From UHGV virus genome UHGV-0117651: a stretch of DNA of 22,213 nucleotides; one strand, written 5' to 3'. This document shows, piece by piece, positions 1 through 22,213 of the stretch (the stretch's first letter is position 1; the number at the start of each line of letters is the position of its first letter). The position numbers and the translations under genes are program-made. Source of the stretch: a virus. The notes under the pieces are model-generated. The model saw only the letters and a program-made list of their open reading frames with translations, made no database searches and had not been told where the DNA came from.

Positions 1-99
1 GGCATCGAGGACCGGTTCGGCCAGTCCGGCACGCCCGCGGAGCTGTTTGCAGACTACGGCCTGACAGCGGAGAACATTGCCGAAAACGCCCGCCGCCTG

Positions 100-2814
100 A
101 TGGGGCAGTTTGGTGACTCCATCCAGCGAACGCAGGGGGCGATCAAAAATCTCGAGCGTCAGGCGCGTTCATTTGAGCGCGCCCGCGACGCTGTCAGTAA
201 AGCGGATGCGGGTATCGTGAAAGCACGACGCCAGCTTAACGCCCTTAATCAGTTACAACGCACGGGTACAGTGCTCAGCGAAAAACAACAAAAGCTGATG
301 CAGCAGTTAAGCAGCCGGCTTGAACGCCTGAATGAATCGCGCACACGGGAAATTCAGAAAATGCGGGAACTTGGCGGAGAGCTGAAACGCCACGGCATTT
401 CCCTGACAGGCAGCGATAACACCATCCAGCAGGCCATCAGACGCACCGAACAGTACAACAACCAGCTTGAACGCGAACGGCAGGCGCTTGCGCGTGTAAC
501 GCGGGCGCGTGAGCGGTATTCGCGCGCGCAGGAAACCGCGGGAAAACTGAAAACAGGTGGTGCGCTGGCAATTGGTGCTGCAGCGGCTGGCGGCTATGCT
601 GCCGGGCGTTTTTTGCAGCCTGCGATCGGGTTCGGCAAAGAGATGTCCCGCGTTCAGGCACTGACGCGAATCGACAAAAACAGCCCGCAGTTTAAGGCGC
701 TGCGTGAGCAGGCGTTAAAACTTGGTTCTGAAACACAGTTTACTGCGAGTGATGCCGCCAGTGGGCAGAGCTTTCTGGCAATGGCTGGTTTTACTCCGCA
801 GGCCATTCAGGCCGCATTGCCCGGTGTTCTTAATATGGCGCTGGCAGGTGGCGTCGAACTCGGCGAGACGGCTGATATAGGCTCCAATATCCTCACACAG
901 TTCAACCTGACAGCCGATCAAATGGACCGGGTTGGCGATACGCTGACAGCAGCATTCACCCGGACCAATACTGATTTACGCGCGCTGGGCGAAACCATGA
1001 AGTATACCGGTCCGGTTGCCGCAAAACTTGGTATCAGTCTTGAAGAAGCGGCGGCCATGGCCGGGATGCTTGCCAATAATGGTCTTCGCGGAAGCGATGC
1101 TGGTACGGCCATGCGCGCAAGTCTGTCCCGCCTTGCATCACCGCCAAAAGCTGCGGCTGATGCACTGAAAGAGCTGGGGGTGTCAGTTGCTGACGCCAGA
1201 GGCAAAATGCGCCCGATGGAGGATGTGCTGCTTGATCTCTATAAGGCGACACAAAAATACGGACAGGTGGACCAGGTCTCCTTCTTCAAGGACATCGCCG
1301 GAGAAGAGGCGTTCGTTGGTTTGCAGACGCTTGTTGCGGCGGCTGGTTCAGGAGAACTGCAAAAACTGACCAGAGAATTGCAGGGGGCAAGGGGAGAGGC
1401 CGATCGCGTTGCAAAAGTAATGGCCGATAATCTTGATGGAGACCTGAAAAATCTCGACAGCGCATGGGAAGGTCTTCGTATTCGCATCAGTGATCTGGTT
1501 GACGGTCCGCTGCGTTCTGTCACGCAGTGGCTCACGCGGGTGCTTGAAAAAATCACCTCGCTGGCGCAGGCCCATCCGGTACTGACGCGCCAGCTACTGA
1601 TAGCAGGCGGTGCGTTGCTGGCAATGACTGCAACGATTGGCTCGTTGTCGCTGGTTATTGGGGTGCTTTACGGGAAGCTGGCCACCTTGCGTCTTACCCG
1701 GTCAATGAATGTCATCAGGGTGTTGCCTGCGCTGTGGGGAATGGTGACGGGTTCTGTTTCTTTGCTGGGAGGAGCTATCGGGGCGCTGTTCAGTCCGGTT
1801 AGTCTTATCGTGGCTGCGCTTGCCGGCGCTGCCGTTCTTATCTGGAAATACTGGGATCCCATCAGGGCATTTTTTGCCGGGGTGTTCAGCGGGATTATGG
1901 AAAGGCTGAACCCGTTGCGTGAAACCTTTGAACGGTTTGGCCCTGTTTTTGACGCAATCGGAAGCGGGATCAGCCAGGTGTTTAACTGGTTTAAATCGCT
2001 GCTGTCACCGATGGAGTCCAGCAAGGAAACGCTGGATAAATGTACCAGTGCTGGCGAGATATTCGGTAACGTTCTTGGTGGCGCGTTACAGCTTGTTCTG
2101 ACGCCTGCAAAAATGTTGCTGGATACGCTGGCGTGGATACTTGAAAAACTCGGTGTTCTTCCGGATGAAGCGGAAAGGGCGAGAAAGAAAATCGAAGACG
2201 CACAGCGTGCGGCCATTCTTCAGGACAAGGTTGCCTTACTTCAAGGGGACCTGGCGAAAATCAATCCGCCGAAGCCTGTGGAAAATGGCAATGGCACCGG
2301 AGGTGATAAACCCAAAGACAACAAACCGCTCACAGACAGCAATACCGGGACGCTACGCAGACTCAGCAAAATTGCTGATAACACAGGTAAGCTGGTTGAG
2401 GAGACGAAAAAACGCATTGGCCCCGGCGATATTGTCTTTAAAAACCTGCCCCGAGCACTTGCTGTTCGTGGGGAGTGGCAGGAGCGGAAGATTGCGCAGG
2501 CCAGTAAGCCTGCCCCCGCAATTAATATCACACCCGTGGTCCCGGCTCCGCTGCCTCCGGCGCTGGTCCCTGCTGTTGCGGCCAGCTCCCGCCCGGTGGC
2601 GGAGGCCATACGATCTCCAGTGGCATCAGTTCCTGTAACTTCCCGTAACCGGGAGCCTGTTGCCTCCGGATTTGGTGGTGAAATTCATGTTCATCTGCAT
2701 AACGTTGTTACACAGAATCCCCGCGAACTGGCGAAACTGGTCGGTGAAATGGTCAGGGCAGAGATGGAACGGCGCGCCCGTGCCGGGCGTGGCAGTTTTT
2801 ACGATAAAGATTGA
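100..2814 (+). CDS. T: Phage tail tape measure protein (P2 gpT-like). The reading frame is open from window position 1, so the true start may lie upstream or overlap an E' frameshift product.
   Basis: 904-aa ORF, Ala/Gly-rich and coiled-coil-like at the N-terminus with a hydrophobic central segment, typical of tape measure proteins. It sits immediately upstream of a gpU homolog. A GGAG ribosome-binding site for the next gene lies at its 3' end. Family assignment is by eye. Confidence 0.8.
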   Translation: MGQFGDSIQRTQGAIKNLERQARSFERARDAVSKADAGIVKARRQLNALNQLQRTGTVLSEKQQKLMQQLSSRLERLNESRTREIQKMRELGGELKRHGISLTGSDNTIQQAIRRTEQYNNQLERERQALARVTRARERYSRAQETAGKLKTGGALAIGAAAAGGYAAGRFLQPAIGFGKEMSRVQALTRIDKNSPQFKALREQALKLGSETQFTASDAASGQSFLAMAGFTPQAIQAALPGVLNMALAGGVELGETADIGSNILTQFNLTADQMDRVGDTLTAAFTRTNTDLRALGETMKYTGPVAAKLGISLEEAAAMAGMLANNGLRGSDAGTAMRASLSRLASPPKAAADALKELGVSVADARGKMRPMEDVLLDLYKATQKYGQVDQVSFFKDIAGEEAFVGLQTLVAAAGSGELQKLTRELQGARGEADRVAKVMADNLDGDLKNLDSAWEGLRIRISDLVDGPLRSVTQWLTRVLEKITSLAQAHPVLTRQLLIAGGALLAMTATIGSLSLVIGVLYGKLATLRLTRSMNVIRVLPALWGMVTGSVSLLGGAIGALFSPVSLIVAALAGAAVLIWKYWDPIRAFFAGVFSGIMERLNPLRETFERFGPVFDAIGSGISQVFNWFKSLLSPMESSKETLDKCTSAGEIFGNVLGGALQLVLTPAKMLLDTLAWILEKLGVLPDEAERARKKIEDAQRAAILQDKVALLQGDLAKINPPKPVENGNGTGGDKPKDNKPLTDSNTGTLRRLSKIADNTGKLVEETKKRIGPGDIVFKNLPRALAVRGEWQERKIAQASKPAPAINITPVVPAPLPPALVPAVAASSRPVAEAIRSPVASVPVTSRNREPVASGFGGEIHVHLHNVVTQNPRELAKLVGEMVRAEMERRARAGRGSFYDKD

Positions 2815-2820
2815 GGAGTC

Positions 2821-3315
2821 ATGGCCATGATGATGATCTATGGCATGTTTGTTTTTGAGCTGCGCACGTTGCCGCATCAGCAGTTACAGCAAAACAAAAG
2901 CTGGCGGCACGTGAAAAATGAACGCGTTAACCGTTCAGCAAGCTGGCAGTATATCGGGGCAGGCGATGATCGCATCGTTCTTTCTGGTGTGCTTTATCCT
3001 GAAATTACAGGTGGCGAAGTGTCGCTTTCGTTGCTGACCTCGCAGGCATATACAGGACGCCCCTGGCCTCTGATTGATGGTGTCGGGCAGATTTACGGCA
3101 TGTATGTCCTGACCGGAACGAATACGACCCGCTCCGAGTTTGATCGCTACGGTAAGGCGAAAAAGATAGAATTTTCACTGACTCTTGAACGCTGTGATGA
3201 GGATTTGCGGGAGCGCCTGCAATCCTCATCGTTCAGTGATATGCTGTCCGGCTTCAAAGATAAGGTCACATCATCCCTTAACAGCGCGGCCAGCTCCGTT
3301 AAAGGGCTGTTTTGA
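2821..3315 (+). CDS. U: Phage tail protein gpU (P2 family)
   Basis: 164-aa ORF starting MAMMMIYGMFVFELRTLPHQ, which resembles the P2 gpU N-terminus as recalled from memory. GGAG lies 7 nt upstream of the ATG. It directly follows the tape measure gene as in P2. Confidence 0.8.
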   Translation: MAMMMIYGMFVFELRTLPHQQLQQNKSWRHVKNERVNRSASWQYIGAGDDRIVLSGVLYPEITGGEVSLSLLTSQAYTGRPWPLIDGVGQIYGMYVLTGTNTTRSEFDRYGKAKKIEFSLTLERCDEDLRERLQSSSFSDMLSGFKDKVTSSLNSAASSVKGLF

Positions 3316-3322
3316 TTAACGC

Positions 3323-3352
3323 AAAACCGCTAATGGTCAGATTAGCGGTTTT
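3323..3352. terminator. Bidirectional intrinsic terminator between gpU (+) and the invertase (-)
   Basis: Perfect 12-bp inverted repeat AAAACCGCTAAT / ATTAGCGGTTTT with a 6-nt loop. A-run on the 5' side and T-run on the 3' side, so it forms a hairpin followed by a U-tract on both strands. Confidence 0.6.
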
Positions 3353-3941
3353 CATTTTCCTGAGTCTGCCTGGTTGTTTCTTCAGCCTGTATATCGCCTA
3401 CAGGGTGATAACGATAAATCGTCGATATGCCGATGTCGTAAATGATCGCCAGTTGTTTCCTGTCATGACCGTTTTTAATCAGCCTCGCTATTTGCTCGTG
3501 TTGTTCTTTTGTCAACTTCGGGCGACGTCCGCCAATGCGTCCTTGTGCGCGTGCTGCTGCCAGCCCGGCCAGTGTACGCTCTACAATTAATTCACGTTCC
3601 ATTTCGGCTAAAGCCCCCATGACGTGAAAAAAGAAACGCCCCATGGGTGTTGATGTGTCAATGCTGTCCGTCAGACTACGGAAATTAACACCTTTTTCCC
3701 GCAATTCCTCAATAAGCGTGATCAGGTGTTTCATACTTCTGCCCAGTCTGTCCAGCTTCCAGACAACCAGCGTATCTCCTTCTGATAGCGTTCTGAGCAG
3801 TTTTTTCAATCCCGGTCTGGCTGATTTCGTTCCGCTGATTTTATCTTCAAAAATCAGTTCACATCCTGCGCAGTTCAGTGCATTGCGTTGTAAATCCGTG
3901 TTCTGGTCATTTGTTGACACACGAATATAGCCAATTTGCAT
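3342..3941 (-). CDS. Site-specific DNA invertase, serine recombinase of the Hin/Gin/Cin/Pin family
   Basis: Translation from the ATG at 3941 gives MQIGYIRVSTNDQNTDLQRNAL...VVWKLDRLGRSMKHLI...GRFFFHVMGALAEMERELIVERTLAGLAAARAQGRIGGRRPKL, with a C-terminal helix-turn-helix. This closely matches the Hin/Gin sequences as I recall them. AGAGGA lies 8 nt upstream of the ATG. The ORF track start at 4136 is an upstream extension. Confidence 0.9.
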   Translation of the reverse strand: MQIGYIRVSTNDQNTDLQRNALNCAGCELIFEDKISGTKSARPGLKKLLRTLSEGDTLVVWKLDRLGRSMKHLITLIEELREKGVNFRSLTDSIDTSTPMGRFFFHVMGALAEMERELIVERTLAGLAAARAQGRIGGRRPKLTKEQHEQIARLIKNGHDRKQLAIIYDIGISTIYRYHPVGDIQAEETTRQTQENENR

Positions 3942-3955
3942 AAAAAACATCCTCT

Positions 3956-4519
3956 TTGTTTCGTGAAAAATACATAGTTGGTATAGGTAGGGATAAAAAC
4001 GAAAACGTTGGTTTGGGGGAAGGTTCTGCGCTGCCTGTTGGTGTGCCCGTTCCGTGGCCCTCAGCAACACCACCAACGGGCTGGCTGAAATGTAACGGCG
4101 CAGCATTTTCTTCTGAAATGTATCCCGGACTGGCAAAGGCTTACCCCACCAATAAATTACCGGATTTACGGGGTGAATTTATTCGTGGCTGGGATGATGG
4201 ACGTAGTGCGGATGCGGGGAGAACAATATTATCCGCTCAAGGTGATGCCATACGTAATATCTATGGTGAGTTCAAGACTGTAAACACTGAAAATTATTCA
4301 ATATGGGAATCAGTAGGCTCGTTTAAGGGGGCAGTGGTGCCTTTAAATTCCTCAACAAACAATAGTTATTTCTCCTTAGTCAGAAGTATGGTGACAGAAA
4401 GGACAGACGGCGCTGTTTACCCAAAAGTGATTGGCCTTGATGCTTCAAAAATTGTTCCAACTGCAAACGAAAACCGCCCACGCAACATTGCGTTTAATTA
4501 CATCGTAAGGGCAGCATGA
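3956..4519 (+). CDS. Tail-fibre C-terminal variable cassette 1 (phage tail-collar domain). No canonical start; the frame is open through the crossover site, as expected for a promoterless segment.
   Basis: Encodes GEGSALPVGVPVPWPSATPPTGWLKCNGAAFSSEMYPGLAKAYPTNKLPDLRGEFIRGWDDGR, which fits the tail-collar motif pattern (P-x-GWL-x-C-x-G, LPDLRG). It ends ...PRNIAFNYIVRAA then stop, a typical fibre terminus. Confidence 0.65.
   Translation: MFREKYIVGIGRDKNENVGLGEGSALPVGVPVPWPSATPPTGWLKCNGAAFSSEMYPGLAKAYPTNKLPDLRGEFIRGWDDGRSADAGRTILSAQGDAIRNIYGEFKTVNTENYSIWESVGSFKGAVVPLNSSTNNSYFSLVRSMVTERTDGAVYPKVIGLDASKIVPTANENRPRNIAFNYIVRAA
3996..4021 (+). other. Candidate invertase crossover site 1 (gix/hix-like), at the 5' edge of cassette 1
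   Basis: AAAACGAAAACG-TT-GGTTTGGGGGAA, with imperfect dyad symmetry AAACG/TT/GGTTT. It resembles the gix sequence as I recall it. The right half and central dinucleotide recur unchanged at 4513-4538 and 5028-5053. Confidence 0.5.
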
Positions 4520-4538
4520 AAACGTTGGTTTGGGGGAA
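4513..4538 (+). other. Candidate invertase crossover site 2
   Basis: GAAAACGTTGGTTTGGGGGAAGG, identical to the site 1 core, placed immediately after the stop codon of cassette 1. Confidence 0.5.
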
Positions 4539-5033
4539 GGTTCTGCGCTGCCTGTTGGTGTGCCCGTTCCATGGCCCTCAGCCACACCACCAACGGGCTG
4601 GCTGAAATGCAATGGTGCAGCATTTTCTTCTGAAATGTACCCCAAACTGGCAAAAGCCTACCCCGCAAATAAATTACCGGATTTACGGGGAGAATTTATT
4701 CGCGGCTGGGATGATGGGCGCGGGGTGGATGCTGGCCGCGCTTTGCTTAATTGGCAGCCACACACAATTTTGGATCATGCACACTATATGGAATTATGGA
4801 CCGGGAACGGACTTGCCGTGGAAAGTGCACGGGAAGGATTAAACCCTGGAATACTGGCTACATACGGGGACGGGGGAATAGTTAAAACAGACGAACCCGG
4901 TTTAAGGGTGCCTTCCTCACTACGAGCCATTAGCTCTCGTAATGTAAAACGGTTTGGTGAAATTAGTGGAAATGTAGGTACAGAAACTCGCCCTCGCAAC
5001 GTTGCATTCAATTACATCGTAAGAGCCGCATGA
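4530..5033 (+). CDS. Tail-fibre C-terminal variable cassette 2 (tail-collar domain)
   Basis: The first ~60 residues are near-identical to cassette 1 and the remainder diverges. It ends ...ETRPRNVAFNYIVRAA then stop. Confidence 0.65.
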   Translation: MGEGSALPVGVPVPWPSATPPTGWLKCNGAAFSSEMYPKLAKAYPANKLPDLRGEFIRGWDDGRGVDAGRALLNWQPHTILDHAHYMELWTGNGLAVESAREGLNPGILATYGDGGIVKTDEPGLRVPSSLRAISSRNVKRFGEISGNVGTETRPRNVAFNYIVRAA

Positions 5034-5053
5034 AAACGTTGGTTTGGGGGAAG
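5028..5053 (+). other. Candidate invertase crossover site 3
   Basis: The same conserved block, immediately after the stop codon of cassette 2. Confidence 0.5.
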
Positions 5054-5604
5054 GCTCTGCACTGCCCGTTGGTGTGCCTGTTCCATGGCCCTCAGCCACA
5101 CCACCAACGGGCTGGCTGAAATGTAACGGTGCAGCATTTTCTTCTGAAATGTATCCCGGACTGGCAAAGGCTTACCCCACAAATAAATTACCGGATTTAC
5201 GCGGAGAATTTATCCGTGGCTGGGATGATGGGCGAGGAATTGATGCGGCACGCGCTTTATTGAGCATTCAAAACGGGATGTTGGAAAAACACCGCCATAT
5301 TGTTGTAGCTAACGATGGATATGACACAAAAGATGAATGGGAGTTGGCTACGATTTTCAAAAAAACATATACACAAGGCAGGGGGCTTGATGCCACAAAT
5401 ACAGGAGGGAGTTTGATTCCATCATCGCCACGACGTCAGGTAACGCTACATCGGTATACAGATAAATTCCCAGACCGAACTGGTTGTTGGTCAGTGCGCC
5501 TGACAGTCGAAACTTACAGCTCAGTCTGCCACCCCGTGTCAGCAGGGAGACTGCGTCATCCACCGGATGCATCAGGGACCAAGTTTTATTGCTCTGCTTG
5601 GTAA
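5044..5604 (+). CDS. Tail-fibre C-terminal variable cassette 3 (tail-collar domain). The 3' end is atypical or degenerate and overlaps the antisense ORF on the - strand.
   Basis: Conserved N-terminal block, then a divergent region that keeps a Q...H-x-H pattern (SIQNGMLEKHRHIVV). It lacks the NYIVRAA terminus of cassettes 1 and 2. Confidence 0.45.
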   Translation: MGEGSALPVGVPVPWPSATPPTGWLKCNGAAFSSEMYPGLAKAYPTNKLPDLRGEFIRGWDDGRGIDAARALLSIQNGMLEKHRHIVVANDGYDTKDEWELATIFKKTYTQGRGLDATNTGGSLIPSSPRRQVTLHRYTDKFPDRTGCWSVRLTVETYSSVCHPVSAGRLRHPPDASGTKFYCSAW

Positions 5605-6560
5605 CCTTAAACACACCATCTTCCAGCGCAACACTGCCGCCGGTGATGGTCCAGCCCTGCGCAGCAGCCTCTCCGGCTGTCGGCAGCAGGGAGACTGTAC
5701 GAACGGATGTGTCACCATCAGACGGCCCCGATGGAGTGTCGCCGCCGGGCGAGGGTTTGATTTCCGGTGCGGTACCGCTGATGAAGGCGCTGGTTCGACC
5801 AACTGCGTTCAGAATAGCGGTTGCCAGGCGATCCGAAATAATGCCCCTGCGCGCCCATGAACTGAAATGTGTCGGACGATTTGACGATACCCAATTACCA
5901 TTACTACGGGATTGCGCGCCGTAATAACCTGCATCAGCAATATCCGGGTCTTCTGCCGGTAAGTTGGTGGGCGTGTTGTTGCCGTTACCGTCGGTCATGA
6001 ACGGCACAAAGAAAACGTTGTCGCTCTCCCTGTTTTTGTACGCGCCGTAGACGGAGTCATACTGTGTGCCGTATGTGTTTTTCCAGTAATACGTCGTGTC
6101 GCCACAAATCCACGGTATAACTGCAGCACTGCCGCCATGGCACTGCGCGTTAAATCCGGAAAGGTCAGTACGGAACTGCTTCAGCATGGCCGTGAACAGG
6201 TCCGGTTGCTGTGCGTAGGTGGCAGCGCTCATGTCAAATTCGCCCTGCATCCAGCACACCGCCAGCAACACATTTTTCGGGTTCTTCTGTAATGCCGCTT
6301 TGGTGCGTGCGATCAGGTCCTGATATAACGGCTTACCCGCACCCCAGCGCGCCGAATCCTGGCTGGCCCCCGTGGTCGTACTGAATGTTCCCTCCGCGCC
6401 CTGAGTGAATGCCGAACCACCACGACAGCATGGTACCAGCAGGATCCCCGCGTTATTCGGGATATACGGGAGTAGTTTTTTGGCAATATGAAGTCCCTGT
6501 CCCACACAGCCGTACTGACCTTTGCTCAGGTCCGCCTTCGGATGATTCAGCGTACTCATA
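5357..6560 (-). CDS. SGNH/SASA-family hydrolase-like protein (sialate O-acetylesterase-like), possibly a receptor-modifying or receptor-binding tail accessory protein. The C-terminal ~80 codons overlap cassette 3 on the other strand, so the true 3' end is uncertain.
   Basis: Translation from the ATG at 6560 begins MSTLNHPKADLSKGQYGCVGQG. Blocks LLVPCCRGGSAF, VCWMQGEFD and THFSSWARRGI resemble the conserved blocks of the sialate O-acetylesterase domain as I recall them, but the expected GQSN serine motif is not obvious. The start ATG overlaps the stop of truncated gpL as ATGA. Confidence 0.45.
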
Positions 6561-6828
6561 CCGGAACATCGGCCAGCGTCTGATGGCCAGCCGCCTGCTG
6601 TTCCTGCTGCCACGCTTCCAGTTCGCGGGTAACGTGAGCCACGGCCCCAGTGGCGGTATGCAGCAGGCGGGAGGTGGTCACGCGGCCCGGCAGTCGTACC
6701 GCCAGACGCAGCTCGCGCAGCACAATATCCGGCCAGAATGCACCTGCTGAAATGCGAGTGTCGCCATCATCGGTATCGGTGATGTCGTCCTCTGCGGGTC
6801 CTGGTTCAGTTCTGGCAACCATACTCAT
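6556..6828 (-). pseudogene. L: Capsid completion protein gpL, N-terminal ~90 codons only (truncated)
   Basis: MSMVARTE...AFWPDIVLRELRLAVRLPGR...EAWQQEQQAAGHQTLADVPV resembles the gpL N-terminus (FFFPDIDPKRVRERMRLEQ...REQKIAAGFTRLADVPADD, recalled from memory). The ORF stops right after LADVPV, where P2 gpL as I recall it continues for ~80 more residues. GGAG lies upstream of the ATG at 6828. Confidence 0.6.
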
Positions 6829-13763: not shown

Positions 13764-14075
13764 TTACTCAGGAAATAACGCCCGGATATTCCCAGCCATC
13801 TGGCTGGTTATCTTAGCCACTGGTGCAGACTGTGCTTCAAACTTTTTTGAGCTGATTTGTGTCACAGGTAAAATCTCATCATCAGCCCATGCGGTCAGTC
13901 GGTAAGCCTCTGCCGGATTCGTCTTCAGAAGTGCCAGCCCGGCCAGAAAAGCCACGCGTTGGCCGCTTTTGCGGGCTTCTGGTGTAAGGCTGTCCAGCCA
14001 GGCGCATGCTTCTCCTTCGTTCTTGACGGCAGCTGGCTTCAGATAGAAACTTATTCTTCTGGTTGGTGTCGTCAT
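13764..14075 (-). CDS. parR: Plasmid partition adaptor ParR (StbB-like)
   Basis: 103-aa ORF immediately after parM with a 4-nt gap. Its N-terminal region (ISFYLKPA...LDSLTPEARKSGQRVAFLAGLALL) resembles R1 ParR as I recall it. Confidence 0.7.
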   Translation of the reverse strand: MTTPTRRISFYLKPAAVKNEGEACAWLDSLTPEARKSGQRVAFLAGLALLKTNPAEAYRLTAWADDEILPVTQISSKKFEAQSAPVAKITSQMAGNIRALFPE

Positions 14076-14079
14076 TGGT

Positions 14080-15039
14080 TTACTCCTTGTTCATTGCGTA
14101 CAGCCCATTAACCAGAGCAAACTGTGGCACCCCGTCCGCGATGAAAGTCGCATTAACTCCGCAGGCTTCGCGGATAGCGGGTGCCACAATCTCCGCCCCG
14201 CCACCGACAACCATCACCCGCCCGTAACCGGAAAAACCCGCCAGCGCGCGGATCACTCGTTGTTTCAGTGTCTCCTCCTTTTCACGAATAACCGCCATCA
14301 GGCTGTTGTAATGCGCGTCATTGTGAATGTGCTGGCGCAGCCAGGCTTCATCGTGACGGTGCTCAATAATGGTATTGGCGATGTGGTGACTGGTACGCAT
14401 ACCGTTAGTGGCCATCACCGACAGCACGGCATCAGCCATCAGGGAAACGCCTACGTGTGGATCGCAAAACACCTGGCTGATACCTGCCAGCTGCCCCTGA
14501 ACCTTTGCCACATCCAGCGTGGTTCCGCCCAAATCCACAATCAGCAGGGATTCAAACGGACTCATGTCAGCCAGTGCCTTAAAGCCAGCCGGAATGGATT
14601 CAGGCATAACCCGCACGTTACGGATAGTGAATGCTTCGCCGTTCTGGTACTCCACCGGGCGCATAACGTTCGCTTTTTTGCGGTTGATGTTGGCTATGTC
14701 CGGCTGTGCGTTTGTGTCGAAATACTCGCTCAGTGGCAGGGTGACAACCACATCCACCTCCTGTGGCGTGATGCCTGATTTGACCAGCGCGTGATGAATG
14801 GCAATGACATTCACATCACTGTACTGGTATTGCGTGTCGGTCGTCTGGACAAAGCGATCGCTGACCGGATCAAAACCATAGCGCACGCCATCAAGCATGT
14901 AGTTCGCGGGCTGCGTGCCACCGAACGGCGCAGACCATTCCGACTTGAAGCTGTTCGGGCTGATGGCGTTGCGGCGTTCGCCGTTCTCAGTCCATGCCAG
15001 CTTGATGTTGGTGGAGCCGTCGTCAATACAAATTTTCAT
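14080..15039 (-). CDS. parM: Actin-like plasmid segregation ATPase ParM (StbA)
   Basis: MKICIDDGSTNIKLAW, ISPNSFK, YSDVNVIAIHHAL, LLIVDLGGTTLDV, GFSGYGRVMVVGGGAEI and LVNGLYAM closely match the R1 ParM motifs as I recall them. AAGGA ribosome-binding site. Confidence 0.9.
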   Translation of the reverse strand: MKICIDDGSTNIKLAWTENGERRNAISPNSFKSEWSAPFGGTQPANYMLDGVRYGFDPVSDRFVQTTDTQYQYSDVNVIAIHHALVKSGITPQEVDVVVTLPLSEYFDTNAQPDIANINRKKANVMRPVEYQNGEAFTIRNVRVMPESIPAGFKALADMSPFESLLIVDLGGTTLDVAKVQGQLAGISQVFCDPHVGVSLMADAVLSVMATNGMRTSHHIANTIIEHRHDEAWLRQHIHNDAHYNSLMAVIREKEETLKQRVIRALAGFSGYGRVMVVGGGAEIVAPAIREACGVNATFIADGVPQFALVNGLYAMNKE

Positions 15040-18382: not shown

Positions 18383-18613
18383 TTAATGGTGTTTGTTTTG
18401 CTGCTGGATGAGCTGTTGAAGCTCGTGCAGATCATTCGCCAGATAGCTGTAAACAGAGGCGGAATAAATGTTTGATAGTGCGTGGCTGCGCTCATGCAGC
18501 ATATTGATGTGCATGATTTGCGCGACGCGTGATGCGCGGGAAAGTCTGCGGTTGATTTCAGTCTGGATGTGACGACGCTCCGCGATAGCGCGGTGTGGTT
18601 TGCGGTTTGCCAT
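18383..18613 (-). CDS. Hypothetical early-operon protein (76 aa, basic)
   Basis: ORF with AAGGGG upstream of the ATG. It is preceded by the structured 320-bp leader. Confidence 0.45.
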   Translation of the reverse strand: MANRKPHRAIAERRHIQTEINRRLSRASRVAQIMHINMLHERSHALSNIYSASVYSYLANDLHELQQLIQQQNKHH

Positions 18614-18935
18614 GGTGTGGCCCCTTGTGTAGTAAGTTGTGAAAACTCACCATCCAGAGCTGCGAAACTGTGGGTGGCGAGACGTACGAGGTTCGCAGTA
18701 CCGGCTACACAAGAACCCGGCCCGACCGAAGTCGGCCCCGTACGCCCCGCCATAATTCTGACGCGAAAAAAACGTGGCAATACAGTACGCACAAAAAAAC
18801 CGCTGGCGCGGTTGTGCGCTTGTGTAGTCAGCAGGCTGCGAAACCCGACACCCGTTTTGTGAGGTGCAGCGGAAATGTAACCTGACTGATTGCGACATGG
18901 CAAGCGGTTTTTTTGTGTGTGCATGTTCTGGTTTC
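18614..18935 (-). promoter_or_regulatory. Structured noncoding leader inside the early operon, with three copies of a bipartite motif (CTTGTGTAG + GCTGCGAA); the middle copy is inverted
   Basis: Copy 1 at 18623-18661 (direct), copy 2 at 18690-18714 (inverted, GGTTCGCAG...GCTACACAAG) and copy 3 at 18819-18844 (direct). A GC-rich hairpin lies at 18716-18740. Copy 1 overlaps the ribosome-binding site of the 76-aa ORF. Confidence 0.45.
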
Positions 18936-19235
18936 TTACTGGTTCAGAAAAAAATCAAAAACCTTGTCAATGCGTTGCAGCAGCTCTTGCTGCATTGCTT
19001 CCGGCGTTTCCGGTTCGCCAGGTGCCCCCAGCGTTGCGCAGAAATCAGCGATTTCATGATGGAGCGTCAGGCGAATGGCAGGAGCCGTGGTTTTGGCGTG
19101 CTCCAGCTGATCCAGCAGTGCCAGCACAGCAGACGGCGAGAGCATTACGCGAAATGCCAGTAATTTTTGAGGAGTTGCCATTCGTTGCAGGGCAAATGCC
19201 AGTTCGCGTAGCTTCTGGTGGTTGATGGTGCTCAT
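18936..19235 (-). CDS. Hypothetical early-operon protein (99 aa)
   Basis: ORF whose start overlaps the stop of the upstream gene. No family recognised. Confidence 0.5.
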   Translation of the reverse strand: MSTINHQKLRELAFALQRMATPQKLLAFRVMLSPSAVLALLDQLEHAKTTAPAIRLTLHHEIADFCATLGAPGEPETPEAMQQELLQRIDKVFDFFLNQ

Positions 19236-19498
19236 GTTCTGGCTTCCTTCATTAGCTGGTTAAACATGTGAGTAAGTGGATTGCTACACCCGAACGGCAT
19301 CGGGTTTACGTGGTAAGAAGCCTGGCCTCCAGTTTTGCGAGCGCGACCACCTGTGCTGCGGTTTGTTCTGATGACTAAGCCGCTGCGCCAAAGTCGGCGT
19401 AACTCAGCATTAATAGCTGTGGTTGGGGTGTTCAGTGCTGCGGCGATTTCTCCGCCGCTACAACCCGGATGTGTAGTGATGTAGTCCAGAATGGTCAT
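19232..19498 (-). CDS. Putative winged-helix DNA-binding protein (88 aa)
   Basis: GGEIAAALNTPTTAINAELRRLWRSGLV looks like a helix-turn-helix with a wing. Overlapping start and stop with both neighbours. Confidence 0.45.
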   Translation of the reverse strand: MTILDYITTHPGCSGGEIAAALNTPTTAINAELRRLWRSGLVIRTNRSTGGRARKTGGQASYHVNPMPFGCSNPLTHMFNQLMKEART

Positions 19499-19698
19499 TT
19501 GCGTGGCTCCTGTACCTGTCGGATAAGATTCACCCGCGCCACGTTGGTGGCGCAGAAGTAAGTGCCGTCAGTGAGGTAGATGTGGTGTGCATCCTTTTCC
19601 GAACGATGTTTGTCGATAGTGGTAATCAGGCGTTCGTCGACCTCGTATTCGCGCCCTCTGGAGGTAAAGCGAATGATGGGAAAATGCTTAATTGCCAT
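19495..19698 (-). CDS. Hypothetical protein (67 aa)
   Basis: ORF coupled to the downstream gene. No family recognised. Confidence 0.4.
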   Translation of the reverse strand: MAIKHFPIIRFTSRGREYEVDERLITTIDKHRSEKDAHHIYLTDGTYFCATNVARVNLIRQVQEPRK

Positions 19699-19721
19699 TG
19701 CGCCCCCTTTGTCCAGTAACC

Positions 19722-20138
19722 CTATGCGTGAAATACGGCACGTTGCGCGTCATCAATGAATACAGCTTGAGATCGTTCTATCAGGCGGAGATTTGTCAGA
19801 AGCTCTGACTCTTTTGTGTGGTAAGGCGTTATCAGGTAGTTGCCGTGCAGTTCGGCAATAATGGTGTATTGCGTCATTATTGCCGAACCAAGAATGTAAA
19901 TGCGGCGTCCAATGCTGGACGGATTCATGGCTGCAACTGTTGACTGTGTTTTAAGAGTGTCGATTTCTTTGCCCTGTTCCTCAATAATTTTGGCTGCTTC
20001 AGAGGTGGCTATTGCGATGGTCAGTGCGTAAAGCGCTGCCATATGTTGATTATCTTTCTGGGCTGCCCTGGACAGCTTGTCTTGCTCTGCTGACACTATT
20101 TTTAATGTATTGATAATATTTTTTTCTTTTGCGTTCAT
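19722..20138 (-). CDS. Hypothetical protein (138 aa)
   Basis: ORF with GGAGAT upstream of the ATG. No family recognised. Confidence 0.5.
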   Translation of the reverse strand: MNAKEKNIINTLKIVSAEQDKLSRAAQKDNQHMAALYALTIAIATSEAAKIIEEQGKEIDTLKTQSTVAAMNPSSIGRRIYILGSAIMTQYTIIAELHGNYLITPYHTKESELLTNLRLIERSQAVFIDDAQRAVFHA

Positions 20139-20230
20139 TTTATATCTCCGTTATTTACGTGTGCGAATACCTCCGCGAATGCGGATAGTTTTCAGGTTTT
20201 CGGGTTTAATCTGGTGTTTTGTTTAAGCTA

Positions 20231-20344
20231 TTATTTGTCAGTGAAAAAGCGTTCAATCTTTTTTACTGAATGAATAATTCGCATAATCCCAATGGCGCAG
20301 GCCACCGAAATAATCAGAACAAGCCATGAGATAAATATACTCAT
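20231..20344 (-). CDS. Small hydrophobic peptide (37 aa, single predicted transmembrane helix with a basic C-terminus). Not in the ORF track because it is under 60 aa.
   Basis: Manual translation gives MSIFISWLVLIISVACAIGIMRIIHSVKKIERFFTDK. Its ATG overlaps the TGA of the upstream 80-aa ORF (ATGA). GGGGAA lies 6 nt upstream. Confidence 0.4.
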   Translation of the reverse strand: MSIFISWLVLIISVACAIGIMRIIHSVKKIERFFTDK

Positions 20345-20583
20345 GCGATATTCCCCAGCTTATACGGTTCAATGTGTTCCCCGCATTCTGCGGCACAGAT
20401 CAGCTCGGAAAGTTCGTTCAGTGCATCCAGATCATCAGCGTAAAAAGCAACGTCATACAAACTCCGGATTGCCCTGGTCAATGAGTCACGGGCTGCATGT
20501 TCAGCATGAGCGCCTAATGCACTTAAGCGAAAATAAAATCGTTCAAGTGCTTTGTTAATGAGAGTTTTATATTCTTTGCCCAT
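20341..20583 (-). CDS. Hypothetical protein (80 aa)
   Basis: ORF in the early operon. No family recognised. Confidence 0.45.
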   Translation of the reverse strand: MGKEYKTLINKALERFYFRLSALGAHAEHAARDSLTRAIRSLYDVAFYADDLDALNELSELICAAECGEHIEPYKLGNIA

Positions 20584-20594
20584 CGCAACGCCCT

Positions 20595-20873
20595 TTAATC
20601 TGCTTTCTGAATTTCAGCTTCTGAATCCATACAAATAATTTCGATATAGGGTTCATCGCCATTAACCTGACGTGCCTTTTCAGCTTCGCTAATGATTTCT
20701 CGTACGGTCTGGTACGGAAGCTCCACAGTCAGGCGCGTACCGTTCAGATAAACGTAAGTAGCTGCGTTTTTTTCGGATGGAACAACTCCGTCAATGGCTG
20801 ATGCGCGTAATAACAGTTCACCGCGAAAATCAATAAAACGGATAAATACACCTTGTGCATGCTCTTTGGTCAT
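20595..20873 (-). CDS. Hypothetical protein (92 aa from ATG 20873; the ORF track extends to 20933)
   Basis: Internal ATG (MTKEH) with AGGTG upstream. This start avoids a 50-nt overlap with the upstream gene. Confidence 0.45.
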   Translation of the reverse strand: MTKEHAQGVFIRFIDFRGELLLRASAIDGVVPSEKNAATYVYLNGTRLTVELPYQTVREIISEAEKARQVNGDEPYIEIICMDSEAEIQKAD

Positions 20874-20883
20874 AAAGCACCTG

Positions 20884-21234
20884 TTATAAATCAGCCTGTT
20901 TAATAAAACTTTGCCCGCGAAGCAGACGATCAACCGTGCGAAGTGCTTCGTATAATGTGAAATCCTGCCCGAAGTGATTGTCGCCGCAGTTCAATGCAAA
21001 AATGCGGTTTCCGGTAAACGGATTGCGTGGGCATTTGTGGACCACGATTCCAGCTTTCTCAATCAGCCAGGCATGCTCGCCGATTTGTTTTACAGCGTGG
21101 CCATCCGGTGTTGCGTGCGTCTCGTTCAGGTTATAGCGACTGTTACTACGTGATGCACTGGTAGCGACGTGGTGTACATGGCGTTCTACGCCATTACGAA
21201 ATTTGGAGTATGGATTATTAGCGTTTTTTTTCAT
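20884..21234 (-). CDS. Hypothetical protein (116 aa)
   Basis: ORF in the early operon. Contains His and Cys residues (HVHH, HKCP, NCGDNH). No family recognised. Confidence 0.45.
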   Translation of the reverse strand: MKKNANNPYSKFRNGVERHVHHVATSASRSNSRYNLNETHATPDGHAVKQIGEHAWLIEKAGIVVHKCPRNPFTGNRIFALNCGDNHFGQDFTLYEALRTVDRLLRGQSFIKQADL

Positions 21235-21255
21235 GATGGTGCTCTGTTCATTGTT

Positions 21256-21459
21256 TTAGCTGTTAGCCAAAGCGTCTTTTAACATCGCCACAAGGTTTAC
21301 TTCAGGCTTTTCCATTTTGGCGCGTTTGGGGCGGATAATAATTCGACCGTCAGCCAACATCTTTTTGCATGTATTAAGAGGGATACCTGTTATCTCTGCA
21401 TATTTCTGCAGGGATACATAGGGGGCATTCACATTGATATTGATGGTTATACCTGACAT
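21256..21459 (-). CDS. Cox/Apl/excisionase-like small helix-turn-helix DNA-binding protein
   Basis: VSLQKYAEITGIPLNTCKKMLADGRI resembles the helix-turn-helix of P2 Cox as I recall it and Xis/AlpA-type proteins. It is the second gene of the early operon. Confidence 0.55.
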   Translation of the reverse strand: MSGITININVNAPYVSLQKYAEITGIPLNTCKKMLADGRIIIRPKRAKMEKPEVNLVAMLKDALANS

Positions 21460-21475
21460 CCCACTAGCCTCCTGA

Positions 21476-21682
21476 TCAGGAAGATTTGTTTTGTTCTTTC
21501 TGGGTTAGCTCTAGGCCGCGAAGGAAGATCATGCGCGCCATGTTAGAGGATGAGCGTTGTTCTTTAGCTGCCATTTCATCAATGACGGCTCGCTCCTCGA
21601 GGGACAGCCGAAGTGCCAGTCTTGGACCTGTGGCGGTGTTACGCGGAATGCGTGATCTGGTATCGTGAAGAACTTGTTTCAT
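21476..21682 (-). CDS. Putative ribbon-helix-helix (Arc/CopG-like) regulator, first gene of the early operon
   Basis: LRLSLEERAVIDEMAAKEQRSSSNMARMIFLRGLE looks like a beta-strand followed by two helices. It is transcribed divergently from the repressor. Confidence 0.4.
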   Translation of the reverse strand: MKQVLHDTRSRIPRNTATGPRLALRLSLEERAVIDEMAAKEQRSSSNMARMIFLRGLELTQKEQNKSS

Positions 21683-21724
21683 AGTGGTATATTGTGATCA
21701 TCTAATAGCTCGTGAAATCATTTT

Positions 21725-21742
21725 GGTATCAAAAAAGATACC
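21725..21742. promoter_or_regulatory. Candidate operator palindrome GGTATC-AAAAAA-GATACC in the switch region
   Basis: Perfect 6-bp dyad in the 76-bp gap between the divergent repressor and early-operon genes. Confidence 0.4.
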
Positions 21743-21758
21743 TGCCAAGGTTTTTTGT

Positions 21759-22163
21759 ATGAAAAATGATATTGGTCAGCGGTTGCGTGAGGAAAGGGAA
21801 AGATTGGGACTTAGTCAAGTTGCCATGAGCGACATTGGTGGAGTCAAAAAGCTAACTCAGCTTAGATATGAGAAAGGAGATAGCTTTCCTGATGCTGCGT
21901 ATTTGGCAGCGCTGTCTCGTTTTGGCCTTGATGTTCAGTATGTTGTGTTGGGAATTCACTCACCTGAAACTTATAACGATGATGAGCAGGAGTTGATTAC
22001 TCGCTTTCGAGCAGCTTCGTTAGATGTGAAAAACGCGGTGATTGGGGCTTTAAAAGGTGCGATCAGTGAAAAGGAAACTCAGCCATCAGGACGTGAGTTA
22101 AATATTTCTGGTGGTAAAAACCGTATCGCTGGTCGTGACTATAACGAAACTAAGGGTAGGTGA
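21759..22163 (+). CDS. XRE-family helix-turn-helix immunity repressor (C/CI-like)
   Basis: From ATG 21759: MKNDIGQRLREERERLGLSQVAMSDIGGVKKLTQLRYEKG is a classic XRE helix-turn-helix. Divergent from the early operon. The ORF track start at 21684 is probably an upstream extension. Confidence 0.7.
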   Translation: MKNDIGQRLREERERLGLSQVAMSDIGGVKKLTQLRYEKGDSFPDAAYLAALSRFGLDVQYVVLGIHSPETYNDDEQELITRFRAASLDVKNAVIGALKGAISEKETQPSGRELNISGGKNRIAGRDYNETKGR

Positions 22164-22178
22164 TAATAGGGAGGTGAC

Positions 22179-22213
22179 ATGGCCGTCAACTCAAACGGTT
22201 CAAACAATCGCGT
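22179..22213 (+). CDS. Start of a downstream gene (partial, MAVNSNGSNNR...). An integrase would be expected here by P2 synteny, but this cannot be confirmed.
   Basis: Strong GGGAGGTGA ribosome-binding site 1 nt before the ATG at 22179. The ORF runs off the window. Confidence 0.3.
   Translation, partial: MAVNSNGSNNR

Follow-up and report, generated by a model that had tools for sequence, protein, structure and literature searches.

Does a reading frame of 37 codons, lodged in the early region of a P2-like phage, encode a genuine protein, and what would such a protein do for the phage? The question is raised by the window analysed here, a stretch of 22,213 nucleotides from the UHGV virus genome UHGV-0117651. 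The initial annotation had translated by hand the gap between two minus-strand ORFs and had proposed an unannotated membrane peptide, translationally coupled within an early operon and possibly belonging with the phage proteins that kill the host, inhibit its division or exclude superinfecting phages.

The reading frame and its conservation

An ORF listing contains the 37-aa frame MSIFISWLVLIISVACAIGIMRIIHSVKKIERFFTDK at positions 20231..20344 of the minus strand, stop codon included, with an ATG start. It had been missing from the first ORF track owing to the 60-aa cutoff of the latter, as the initial annotation had remarked. The description “unannotated” holds solely for that track: the gene is present in RefSeq (WP_000021655.1, “hypothetical protein”), in phage P88 (gp07, “membrane protein”), in phage vB_EcoM-569R5 (“putative membrane protein”) and in UniRef (“Prophage membrane protein”). 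The assignment of a small membrane protein CDS to these coordinates draws on the ORF, selection, hydropathy, a structural model and the RefSeq and P88 annotations. As many as 66 ORFs of at least 20 amino acids overlap positions 18500..22213, so that an ORF of such a size is not significant alone; its significance comes from the comparison of its sequence with that of relatives.

Both features reported at the 5' end of the frame are found. The ATG (20344..20342) shares the sequence ATGA with the TGA stop codon of the preceding 80-aa gene, which encodes a DUF4754 protein (20341..20583, minus strand), and a Shine-Dalgarno-like GGGGAA occupies positions 20356..20351 of the minus strand, six bases 5' of the ATG. 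The overlap (20341..20344, minus strand), a putative translational-coupling site, is invariant in 66 unique alleles and retained in three distant lineages (loci L088, L092 and L094); ATGA overlaps are common at other junctions of the early operon too. The duplex of the Shine-Dalgarno motif with the anti-Shine-Dalgarno sequence amounts to -5.5 kcal/mol, a value similar to those of the neighbouring genes. Among the 66 alleles, the GGG never varies and is followed by G or A; distant relatives possess GAGGAG or AGGGGA in place of the GGGGAA of the window type. The codons overlapping this site encode EELA, EGET or GNIA in different lineages, and the purine-rich motif is still kept. Co-expression of the DUF4754 protein and the peptide by translational coupling is likely.

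The comparison covers 93 related loci from IMG/VR viral contigs, GenBank phage records, RefSeq E. coli genomes, species-representative contigs (a scan of which contributed two loci) and public assemblies. They were gathered via an intact neighbouring gene or via the peptide itself, which entails some ascertainment bias. The initial annotation had held that loss of the frame in close homologs would speak against a gene; a frame of 37 to 45 codons starting at the ATGA overlap is intact in all 93 loci, and the first 86 of them harbor 40 DNA alleles of the peptide gene. Variable columns are distributed over the three codon positions as 10/4/17 of 37 in the peptide gene and 15/10/42 of 80 in the DUF4754 gene. 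The adjacent downstream intergenic spacer evolves much faster than the ORF and displays no periodicity (19/23/16 of ~30). The Nei-Gojobori pN/pS ratio is 0.20 in the peptide frame (core 33 codons); the two remaining sense frames reach 1.57 and 1.07, and two of the antisense frames 0.97-1.23. The codon-phased antisense frame exhibits a ratio of 0.24, but contains stop codons in 26 of 33 alleles. Both parts of the peptide are constrained, with a ratio of 0.20 for the transmembrane (TM) segment and 0.25 for the tail. As judged from this comparison, the 37-codon frame is very probably a real protein-coding gene under purifying selection.

The end of the frame is less uniform. In ~7% of the loci, and in 15 of ~50 protein clusters, -1 frameshift alleles replace the end of the tail motif. 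The gene contains two homopolymer runs, A6 at codons 28-29 and T5 at codons 33-34, with recurrent -1 slips; the resulting products are 45 aa long, end with ...SL(T/V/A)NN..NKT... and lose the conserved FTG[DE] tail end. These alleles may be real variants or homopolymer sequencing errors. Either the extreme C-terminus of the peptide would be dispensable, or the frameshifted copies would be defective. In the record of phage 503458, the DUF4754 gene and the peptide gene are both frameshifted, and a 54%-identical tblastn match in this phage, considered as a divergent homolog, was rejected as such a frameshifted remnant beside a broken DUF4754 gene. The peptide is not among the contents of the supplements of one O157 Sakai Ribo-seq study, although a repressed early operon would be silent in a lysogen anyway.

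The exact 37-aa sequence is found on at least 1000 contigs. Of 5426 complete E. coli genomes, 1361 (~25%) carry the segment comprising the DUF4754 gene and the peptide gene, many O157:H7 strains included. Among the 60 segment matches listed, all except the last two, which are partial, overlie two features named “hypothetical protein”; in the single record whose features were gone through one at a time, the two correspond to the peptide gene and the next gene. An E. coli-type cassette, with a DUF4754 protein 98% identical, also occurs on a 226-kb contig (NZ_JBQPOM010000071.1, locus L004) named “Vagococcus sp. WN89Y”; labelled as a Gram-positive Vagococcus, this assembly is probably contaminated or mislabelled. 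The peptide gene is already annotated publicly, is narrowly distributed and is probably accessory.

Genomic context of the peptide gene

A prophage of E. coli AR_0013, adjoining yecA, matches the region of the peptide gene at 99.8-100% identity, and the phages related to this region are P2-like and of P88 type (Peduoviridae, Xuanwuvirus and neighbours). The proposed placement in an early operon is borne out: the gene belongs to a tightly packed minus-strand operon located behind a Cox-like gene. A promoter-like element, TTGGCA-17-CAAAAT (21720..21748, minus strand), identified by consensus scan only (9/12 matches), faces the HTH repressor gene, which is divergent on the plus strand; by analogy with the switch regions of phages P2 and 186, it is a candidate for the early promoter Pe. 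Between the switch region and the Cox-like gene lies a 68-aa ORF (21476..21682, minus strand) that is annotated as “Arc-like repressor” in phage 520873 and has no Pfam match. At this place, the AR_0013 RefSeq record has a 45-aa CDS on the plus strand and leaves the 68-aa ORF unannotated. The Cox/Apl-like excisionase-repressor gene, near the head of the operon (21256..21459, minus strand; phrog_575, E = 1.2e-27), is annotated as a DNA-binding protein.

A cassette conserved in Xuanwuvirus/P88-type P2-like prophages of Escherichia follows, all on the minus strand. It is formed by a DUF4761 gene (20884..21234; Pfam PF15958, E = 2.1e-64), a 92-aa gene that is a cassette member in close relatives (20595..20873; phrog_3800), the DUF4754 gene (Pfam PF15946, E = 1.3e-52) and the peptide gene. 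Intervals of 21, 10 and 11 nt separate successive genes here, and the last junction is the 4-nt overlap. The DUF4761 gene is also found upstream of the DUF4754-peptide pair in distant loci; the 92-aa gene is absent from the distant loci L088, L092 and L094. No PDB match was obtained for the DUF4761 protein or for the 92-aa protein. The sole minus-strand terminator-like match between the Cox-like gene and the peptide gene (20927..20913) lies inside the 3' end of the DUF4761 gene; it is weak and was discarded, such matches being no more frequent in the region than in shuffles. The only internal promoter-like site (20558..20530, 9/12 matches), upstream of the peptide gene, is a weak one.

On the 3' side of the peptide gene, a 92-nt spacer is followed by a 138-aa gene, further small genes and the isrK and C4 RNAs, beyond which come a “derepression” gene and then the gene of the gpA replication endonuclease. 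The order is cox, orf78, B and terminator in phage P2, and apl, cII, fil, dhr and tR1 in phage 186. By comparison with these two phages, the peptide gene would be the last of the first early block, and from this architecture it would therefore be expected to be expressed upon infection or induction and to be silent in the lysogen.

The intergenic region (20139..20230) contains, right after the peptide gene and at the border of a variable slot, a 5-bp stem-loop of sequence TCCGC-N4-GCGGA (20172..20185). Comparison of the 93 loci reveals that its stem pairs fully (Watson-Crick or G.T) in all but one of them, where 4 of 5 pairs are kept. A C:G pair is replaced by T:A, on both sides, in 15 loci, and by a T:G wobble in 4 more. 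The loop sequence varies, and the hairpin is present also in lineages diverged by ~50%. Whereas phage 186 has the terminator tR1 downstream, the short hairpin observed here is devoid of a sense-strand U-run. It is followed by a T-run on the plus strand only and, on its sequence, looks like a terminator for antisense transcription. The window also contains a plus-strand promoter-like element, CTGACA-16-GATAAT, at 20090..20117; transcription from there to the hairpin could produce a ~70-nt RNA complementary to the ribosome-binding site of the 138-aa gene. The folding of the downstream intergenic RNA is not unusual on either strand (z = -1.35 and -1.0). The slot following the hairpin is occupied in the window by the 138-aa gene (19722..20138, minus strand; phrog_9338). 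In related loci it holds many divergent alleles of 122-138 aa (phrog_9338), a 105-aa gene, or nothing (P88), a pattern typical of a cargo or arms-race hotspot.

The C4 antisense RNA (RF01695, 83 bits) and isrK (RF01394, 62 bits) are located at 18670..18757 and 18793..18867 of the minus strand, respectively, in a stretch with many overlapping ORFs and no annotated gene. Just downstream of these RNAs lies a 76-aa gene of the “Derepression” family (18383..18613, minus strand; PF25738). Prophage Gifsy-1 has an isrK/orf45/anrP antirepressor switch (PMC4825925), which the present arrangement resembles, here inside a P2-like early operon. Adjoining the gpA gene, a ParM gene and a ParR-like Plasmid_stab_B gene (13764..15039, minus strand; ParM: PF06406/PF21523, E = 3.5e-82) take the place of a Dam methylase and an AAA ATPase in AR_0013, and of tin and old in P2. 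Such a plasmid-type partition system is an unusual cargo for a P2-like prophage. Positions 1..6613, with tape-measure and tail genes on the plus strand, are not colinear with complete relatives; the genome that matches best accounts for 87% of the window, split into 6 pieces that spread over 30 kb. Compared with full-length prophages, the source element may have undergone rearrangement or deletion.

The predicted products and their relatives

The hydrophobic helix and basic tail described in the initial annotation are recovered by hydropathy, by charge count and in an AlphaFold2 single-helix model. Over residues 3-21, the best 19-residue window, Kyte-Doolittle hydropathy averages 2.68 and the Hessa values sum to -2.9 kcal/mol; residues ~1-21 are predicted to form a TM helix. 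Residues 22-37 would form a basic amphipathic tail in the cytoplasm: this 16-residue segment contains 5 K/R, 2 D/E and 1 H, and has a helical hydrophobic moment of 0.7-0.84. In the AlphaFold2 model, one continuous helix spans residues 2-35 (mean pLDDT of 88). No charge precedes the hydrophobic segment of 19-21 residues and a positive cluster follows it; an N-out/C-in orientation is therefore predicted from the positive-inside rule, an established principle of membrane topology. The periplasm-exposed part of the peptide would be almost nil, and the amphipathic tail would lie at the cytoplasmic face. Sequence and model make it highly probable that the peptide is a single-pass inner-membrane protein. 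Its TM segment contains the small residues S13, A17 and G19, the last two being invariant in five diverged lineages. The one-sided helical periodicity of conservation is not significant (p ~0.1).

Searches of Pfam, PHROG, NCBIfam, PADLOC and the PDB returned no family match for the peptide. Hits to PET117 (E = 0.19), phrog_5620 (E = 0.36) and the PDB proteins SERP1 and P450 (E = 0.5-1.3) were rejected as hydrophobic-segment noise. A profile built from 20 variants was run against 1.84 billion representative proteins and yielded 18 matches that all belong to the peptide's own family. They include 41-aa relatives of ~50% identity, e.g. MNILISWLILILAIICAVGTMRIINGIKTIESLFTGDKRHK, which likewise stem from E. 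coli, with about a thousand contigs carrying each. The family also has members named from Salmonella, Shigella and Citrobacter. In the distant lineages, the DUF4761 gene is followed by an 80-aa gene, by a 41-aa gene with the 4-nt ATGA overlap, and by a spacer with the same small hairpin. The distant 80-aa partner is 31-38% identical to the DUF4754 protein of the window, whereas the peptides are 49-51% identical, indicating that the peptide evolves slower than its partner. Residues M1, S6, W7, L10, A17, G19, I24, I30, E31, F34 and T35 are invariant in five lineages, and the tail follows the motif [RK]-I-I-x-x-[IV]-K-x-I-E-x-[LF]-F-T-G-[DE]. No functional study of the gene was found in the literature on Xuanwuvirus, P88, DUF4754, CP-933T and small phage membrane proteins.

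The AlphaFold2 model of the DUF4754 protein is a three-helix bundle (helices 4-23, 25-48 and 52-66; pLDDT of 89.7, pTM of 0.78). Fold searches with this model in the PDB and BFVD returned nothing below E = 0.8, generic helical bundles only, and a DUF4754 profile run against the PDB retrieved designed helical repeats only. In the loci examined, the peptide gene always comes directly after a DUF4754-type gene, and the absence of the 92-aa gene from the distant lineages designates the DUF4754-peptide pair as the conserved unit. Longer DUF4754 proteins (103-128 aa) were considered as fusions with the peptide and rejected, as they result from wrong-frame reading after frameshifts, mostly in draft assemblies; the apparent fusions of 109-116 aa are likewise frameshift artefacts, none being in-frame. 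Conserved adjacency and the gene overlap, these two features only, point tentatively to a functional partnership between the peptide and DUF4754.

Possible roles in host takeover

No homology was found between the peptide and characterised host-killing, division-inhibiting or exclusion proteins. Positional counterparts are the fil and dhr genes of phage 186, encoding a cell-division inhibitor and a depressor of host replication, respectively. As is proposed here for the DUF4754-peptide pair, these are small, non-essential, overlapping early-lytic genes of a P2-like E. coli phage. In both cases the genes follow the Cox/Apl gene and come right ahead of the intergenic region lying between the first early block and the replication block; P2 orf78 and B occupy an analogous position before the intergenic terminator. 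Unlike the peptide, Fil (75 aa) and Dhr (66 aa) have no predicted TM segment, and their translations differ from that of the peptide. A resemblance by eye of IIRIVHFVIKGV to the Fil C-terminus IMRIIHSVKKIE is treated as chance, BLASTP yielding no alignment of the peptide with Fil. Lambda Kil, Rac KilR and similar prophage proteins are small products of early lytic operons; they block division of the host, and the phage can grow without them. They are soluble and act on FtsZ or ZipA, whereas the peptide is a predicted membrane protein, and neither Pfam nor the profile search reveals homology to Kil-type division inhibitors.

Other parallels are found among small membrane proteins. The type I toxins Hok, Ldr, TisB, Ibs and ShoB insert in the inner membrane, have lengths of 19-50 aa and combine a single hydrophobic helix with a polar or charged end. 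Their genes are stand-alone and controlled by antisense sRNAs, whereas the peptide gene is embedded in an operon and overlaps the preceding stop codon. Pfam, NCBIfam, PADLOC and the profile search do not place the peptide in any type I toxin family, and Rfam finds no sRNA at the locus. The sole pair of plus-strand promoter-like and terminator-like elements (20090..20117 and 20172..20185) is located downstream, clear of the ORF; with the gene inside an operon and no overlapping plus-strand unit, the locus does not have the layout of a type I toxin-antitoxin system. Neither does its position, in an early operon between the Cox-like and replication genes rather than in a lysis cassette, correspond to that of a holin gene. 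T4 Imm, which like other early phage membrane proteins excludes superinfecting phages, is also an early inner-membrane protein, the class predicted for the peptide; it is longer (83 aa), has more membrane-exposed surface and shares no homology with the peptide, which would have nearly no periplasmic exposure. AcrZ, MgtS and KdpF are single-pass proteins of 30-50 aa that bind a larger membrane protein and are often missed by length cutoffs; lambda CIII inhibits the membrane protease FtsH. AcrZ, MgtS and KdpF are chromosomal and host-encoded, whereas the peptide is prophage-encoded, and no homology to them was found. The field of such small proteins has been reviewed (PMC10723866). Overall, the peptide compares best with the small early effectors of phages and with small membrane proteins of the single-pass type, and is in no named family.

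The reading that best accommodates these observations is that of an accessory early-lytic membrane protein, co-translated with DUF4754 and its probable membrane partner in host takeover, a proposal that deserves about as much credence as doubt. The early promoter would transcribe the peptide gene only upon infection or induction. Ribosomes terminating on the DUF4754 gene would restart at the overlapping ATG, aided by the Shine-Dalgarno motif of the peptide gene itself, and this termination-reinitiation would lead to the two proteins being made together. The peptide would then work together with DUF4754, a soluble three-helix protein, most simply by tethering it to the membrane or serving as its partner there, and the pair would perturb a process associated with the host inner membrane (division, replication or envelope function) early in lytic growth. 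The pair would thus provide a non-essential, accessory host-takeover function at the place where 186 has fil and dhr. A joint function is favoured by the retention of the DUF4754-peptide pair, and not of the 92-aa gene, across lineages, and by the cytoplasmic tail, whose constraint matches that of the TM segment and which bears a specific motif. The two host-inhibiting genes of 186 at the analogous site favour host takeover as this function, and the joint frameshifting of both genes in phage 503458 fits an accessory pair. That the target of the takeover lies at the membrane is possible, if rather doubtful. A more specific version, in which a two-part membrane-anchored effector limited to P2-like phages of Escherichia and close relatives would use the tail K-x-I-E-x-[LF]-F-T-G to tether DUF4754, the complex hitting a specific host machine, is unlikely.

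An autonomous membrane-active peptide would do without DUF4754: it would oligomerise, dissipate the proton-motive force or permeabilise the inner membrane, and slow or kill the host early. Its size, single TM helix and charged C-terminal tail indeed recall type I toxins and holin-like peptides, S13, A17 and G19 could serve to pack helices, and the peptide is more conserved than the product of the neighbouring gene. However, no toxin family is related to it in the search of 1.84 billion proteins, Pfam, NCBIfam or PADLOC, and its gene, which is not in a lysis cassette, lies within an operon, its start overlapping the end of the preceding gene, with neither a promoter of its own nor an overlapping antisense RNA. 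The conserved motif of the cytoplasmic tail suggests a specific contact rather than generic membrane damage, and an early membrane collapse would be costly for a phage that has yet to replicate; such a peptide seems improbable. The hypothesis that the frame has no functional product, and is kept for mRNA structure, as a regulatory short ORF or by hitch-hiking beside DUF4754, can appeal to its shortness, to the ease with which hydrophobic ORFs arise in T-rich frames, and to the tolerated frameshift alleles. It conflicts with variation biased to the third codon position at a pN/pS of 0.20, with an amino-acid motif kept at ~50% identity across widely diverged DNA, and with the much faster evolution of the adjacent intergenic DNA. 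Moreover, the next gene is 92 nt away, and the ORF cannot therefore be a coupling leader for it. This makes a non-functional frame highly improbable.

Two further roles retain a function at the membrane. Predicted inner-membrane location and early expression are also those of a lytic-phase exclusion or immunity protein that, like T4 Imm, would block the entry of DNA from secondary phages during virion production, and the locus lies in a mosaic region beside a highly variable gene slot. Yet Pfam, PHROG, PADLOC and the profile search reveal no homology to known exclusion proteins, 37 residues would leave only one or two of them in the periplasm, hence little surface for the machinery of an incoming phage, and the cassette is conserved (pN/pS of 0.20) rather than diversifying. 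Exclusion in this form is quite unlikely, and classical superinfection exclusion expressed by the lysogen fits poorly with a position in a repressed early lytic operon. Modulation of a specific host membrane protein to tune the lysis-lysogeny decision, by inhibiting FtsH as CIII does or by regulating a transporter or sensor in the manner of AcrZ and MgtS, would make use of the conserved amphipathic basic tail adjoining the TM helix. It would also suit a block located directly after the Cox-like switch gene, where 186 has the lysogeny-establishment gene cII. The argument is purely analogical, though: no homology to CIII or to small-protein regulators emerges from Pfam, NCBIfam or the profile search, and Pfam and PHROG detect no CII-like factor in the cassette. 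Such a modulator has only a slight probability.

With an accessory early-lytic membrane protein acting beside DUF4754 as the preferred reading, the locus is experimentally tractable, since P88 and PhiSM are both functional as temperate phages, and PhiSM forms plaques on E. coli K-12 and establishes lysogeny in it (PMC5285337, PMC6456863). The expected impact is modest, the gene being already annotated, narrowly distributed and probably accessory. If the two-part effector were true, a host machine such as the divisome, FtsH or the attachment of the replisome to the membrane would be hit, resulting in host arrest or in a biased lysis-lysogeny decision, and the pair would be a functional counterpart of 186 Fil/Dhr or of lambda CIII/Kil built from unrelated parts. 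About one quarter of complete E. coli genomes have the locus, with many O157:H7 strains among the carriers. Small phage membrane proteins that act early often reveal vulnerable host targets, such as division, membrane potential or proteases, and the target of this peptide, once identified, could open a new approach to the way P2-like phages take over their host.
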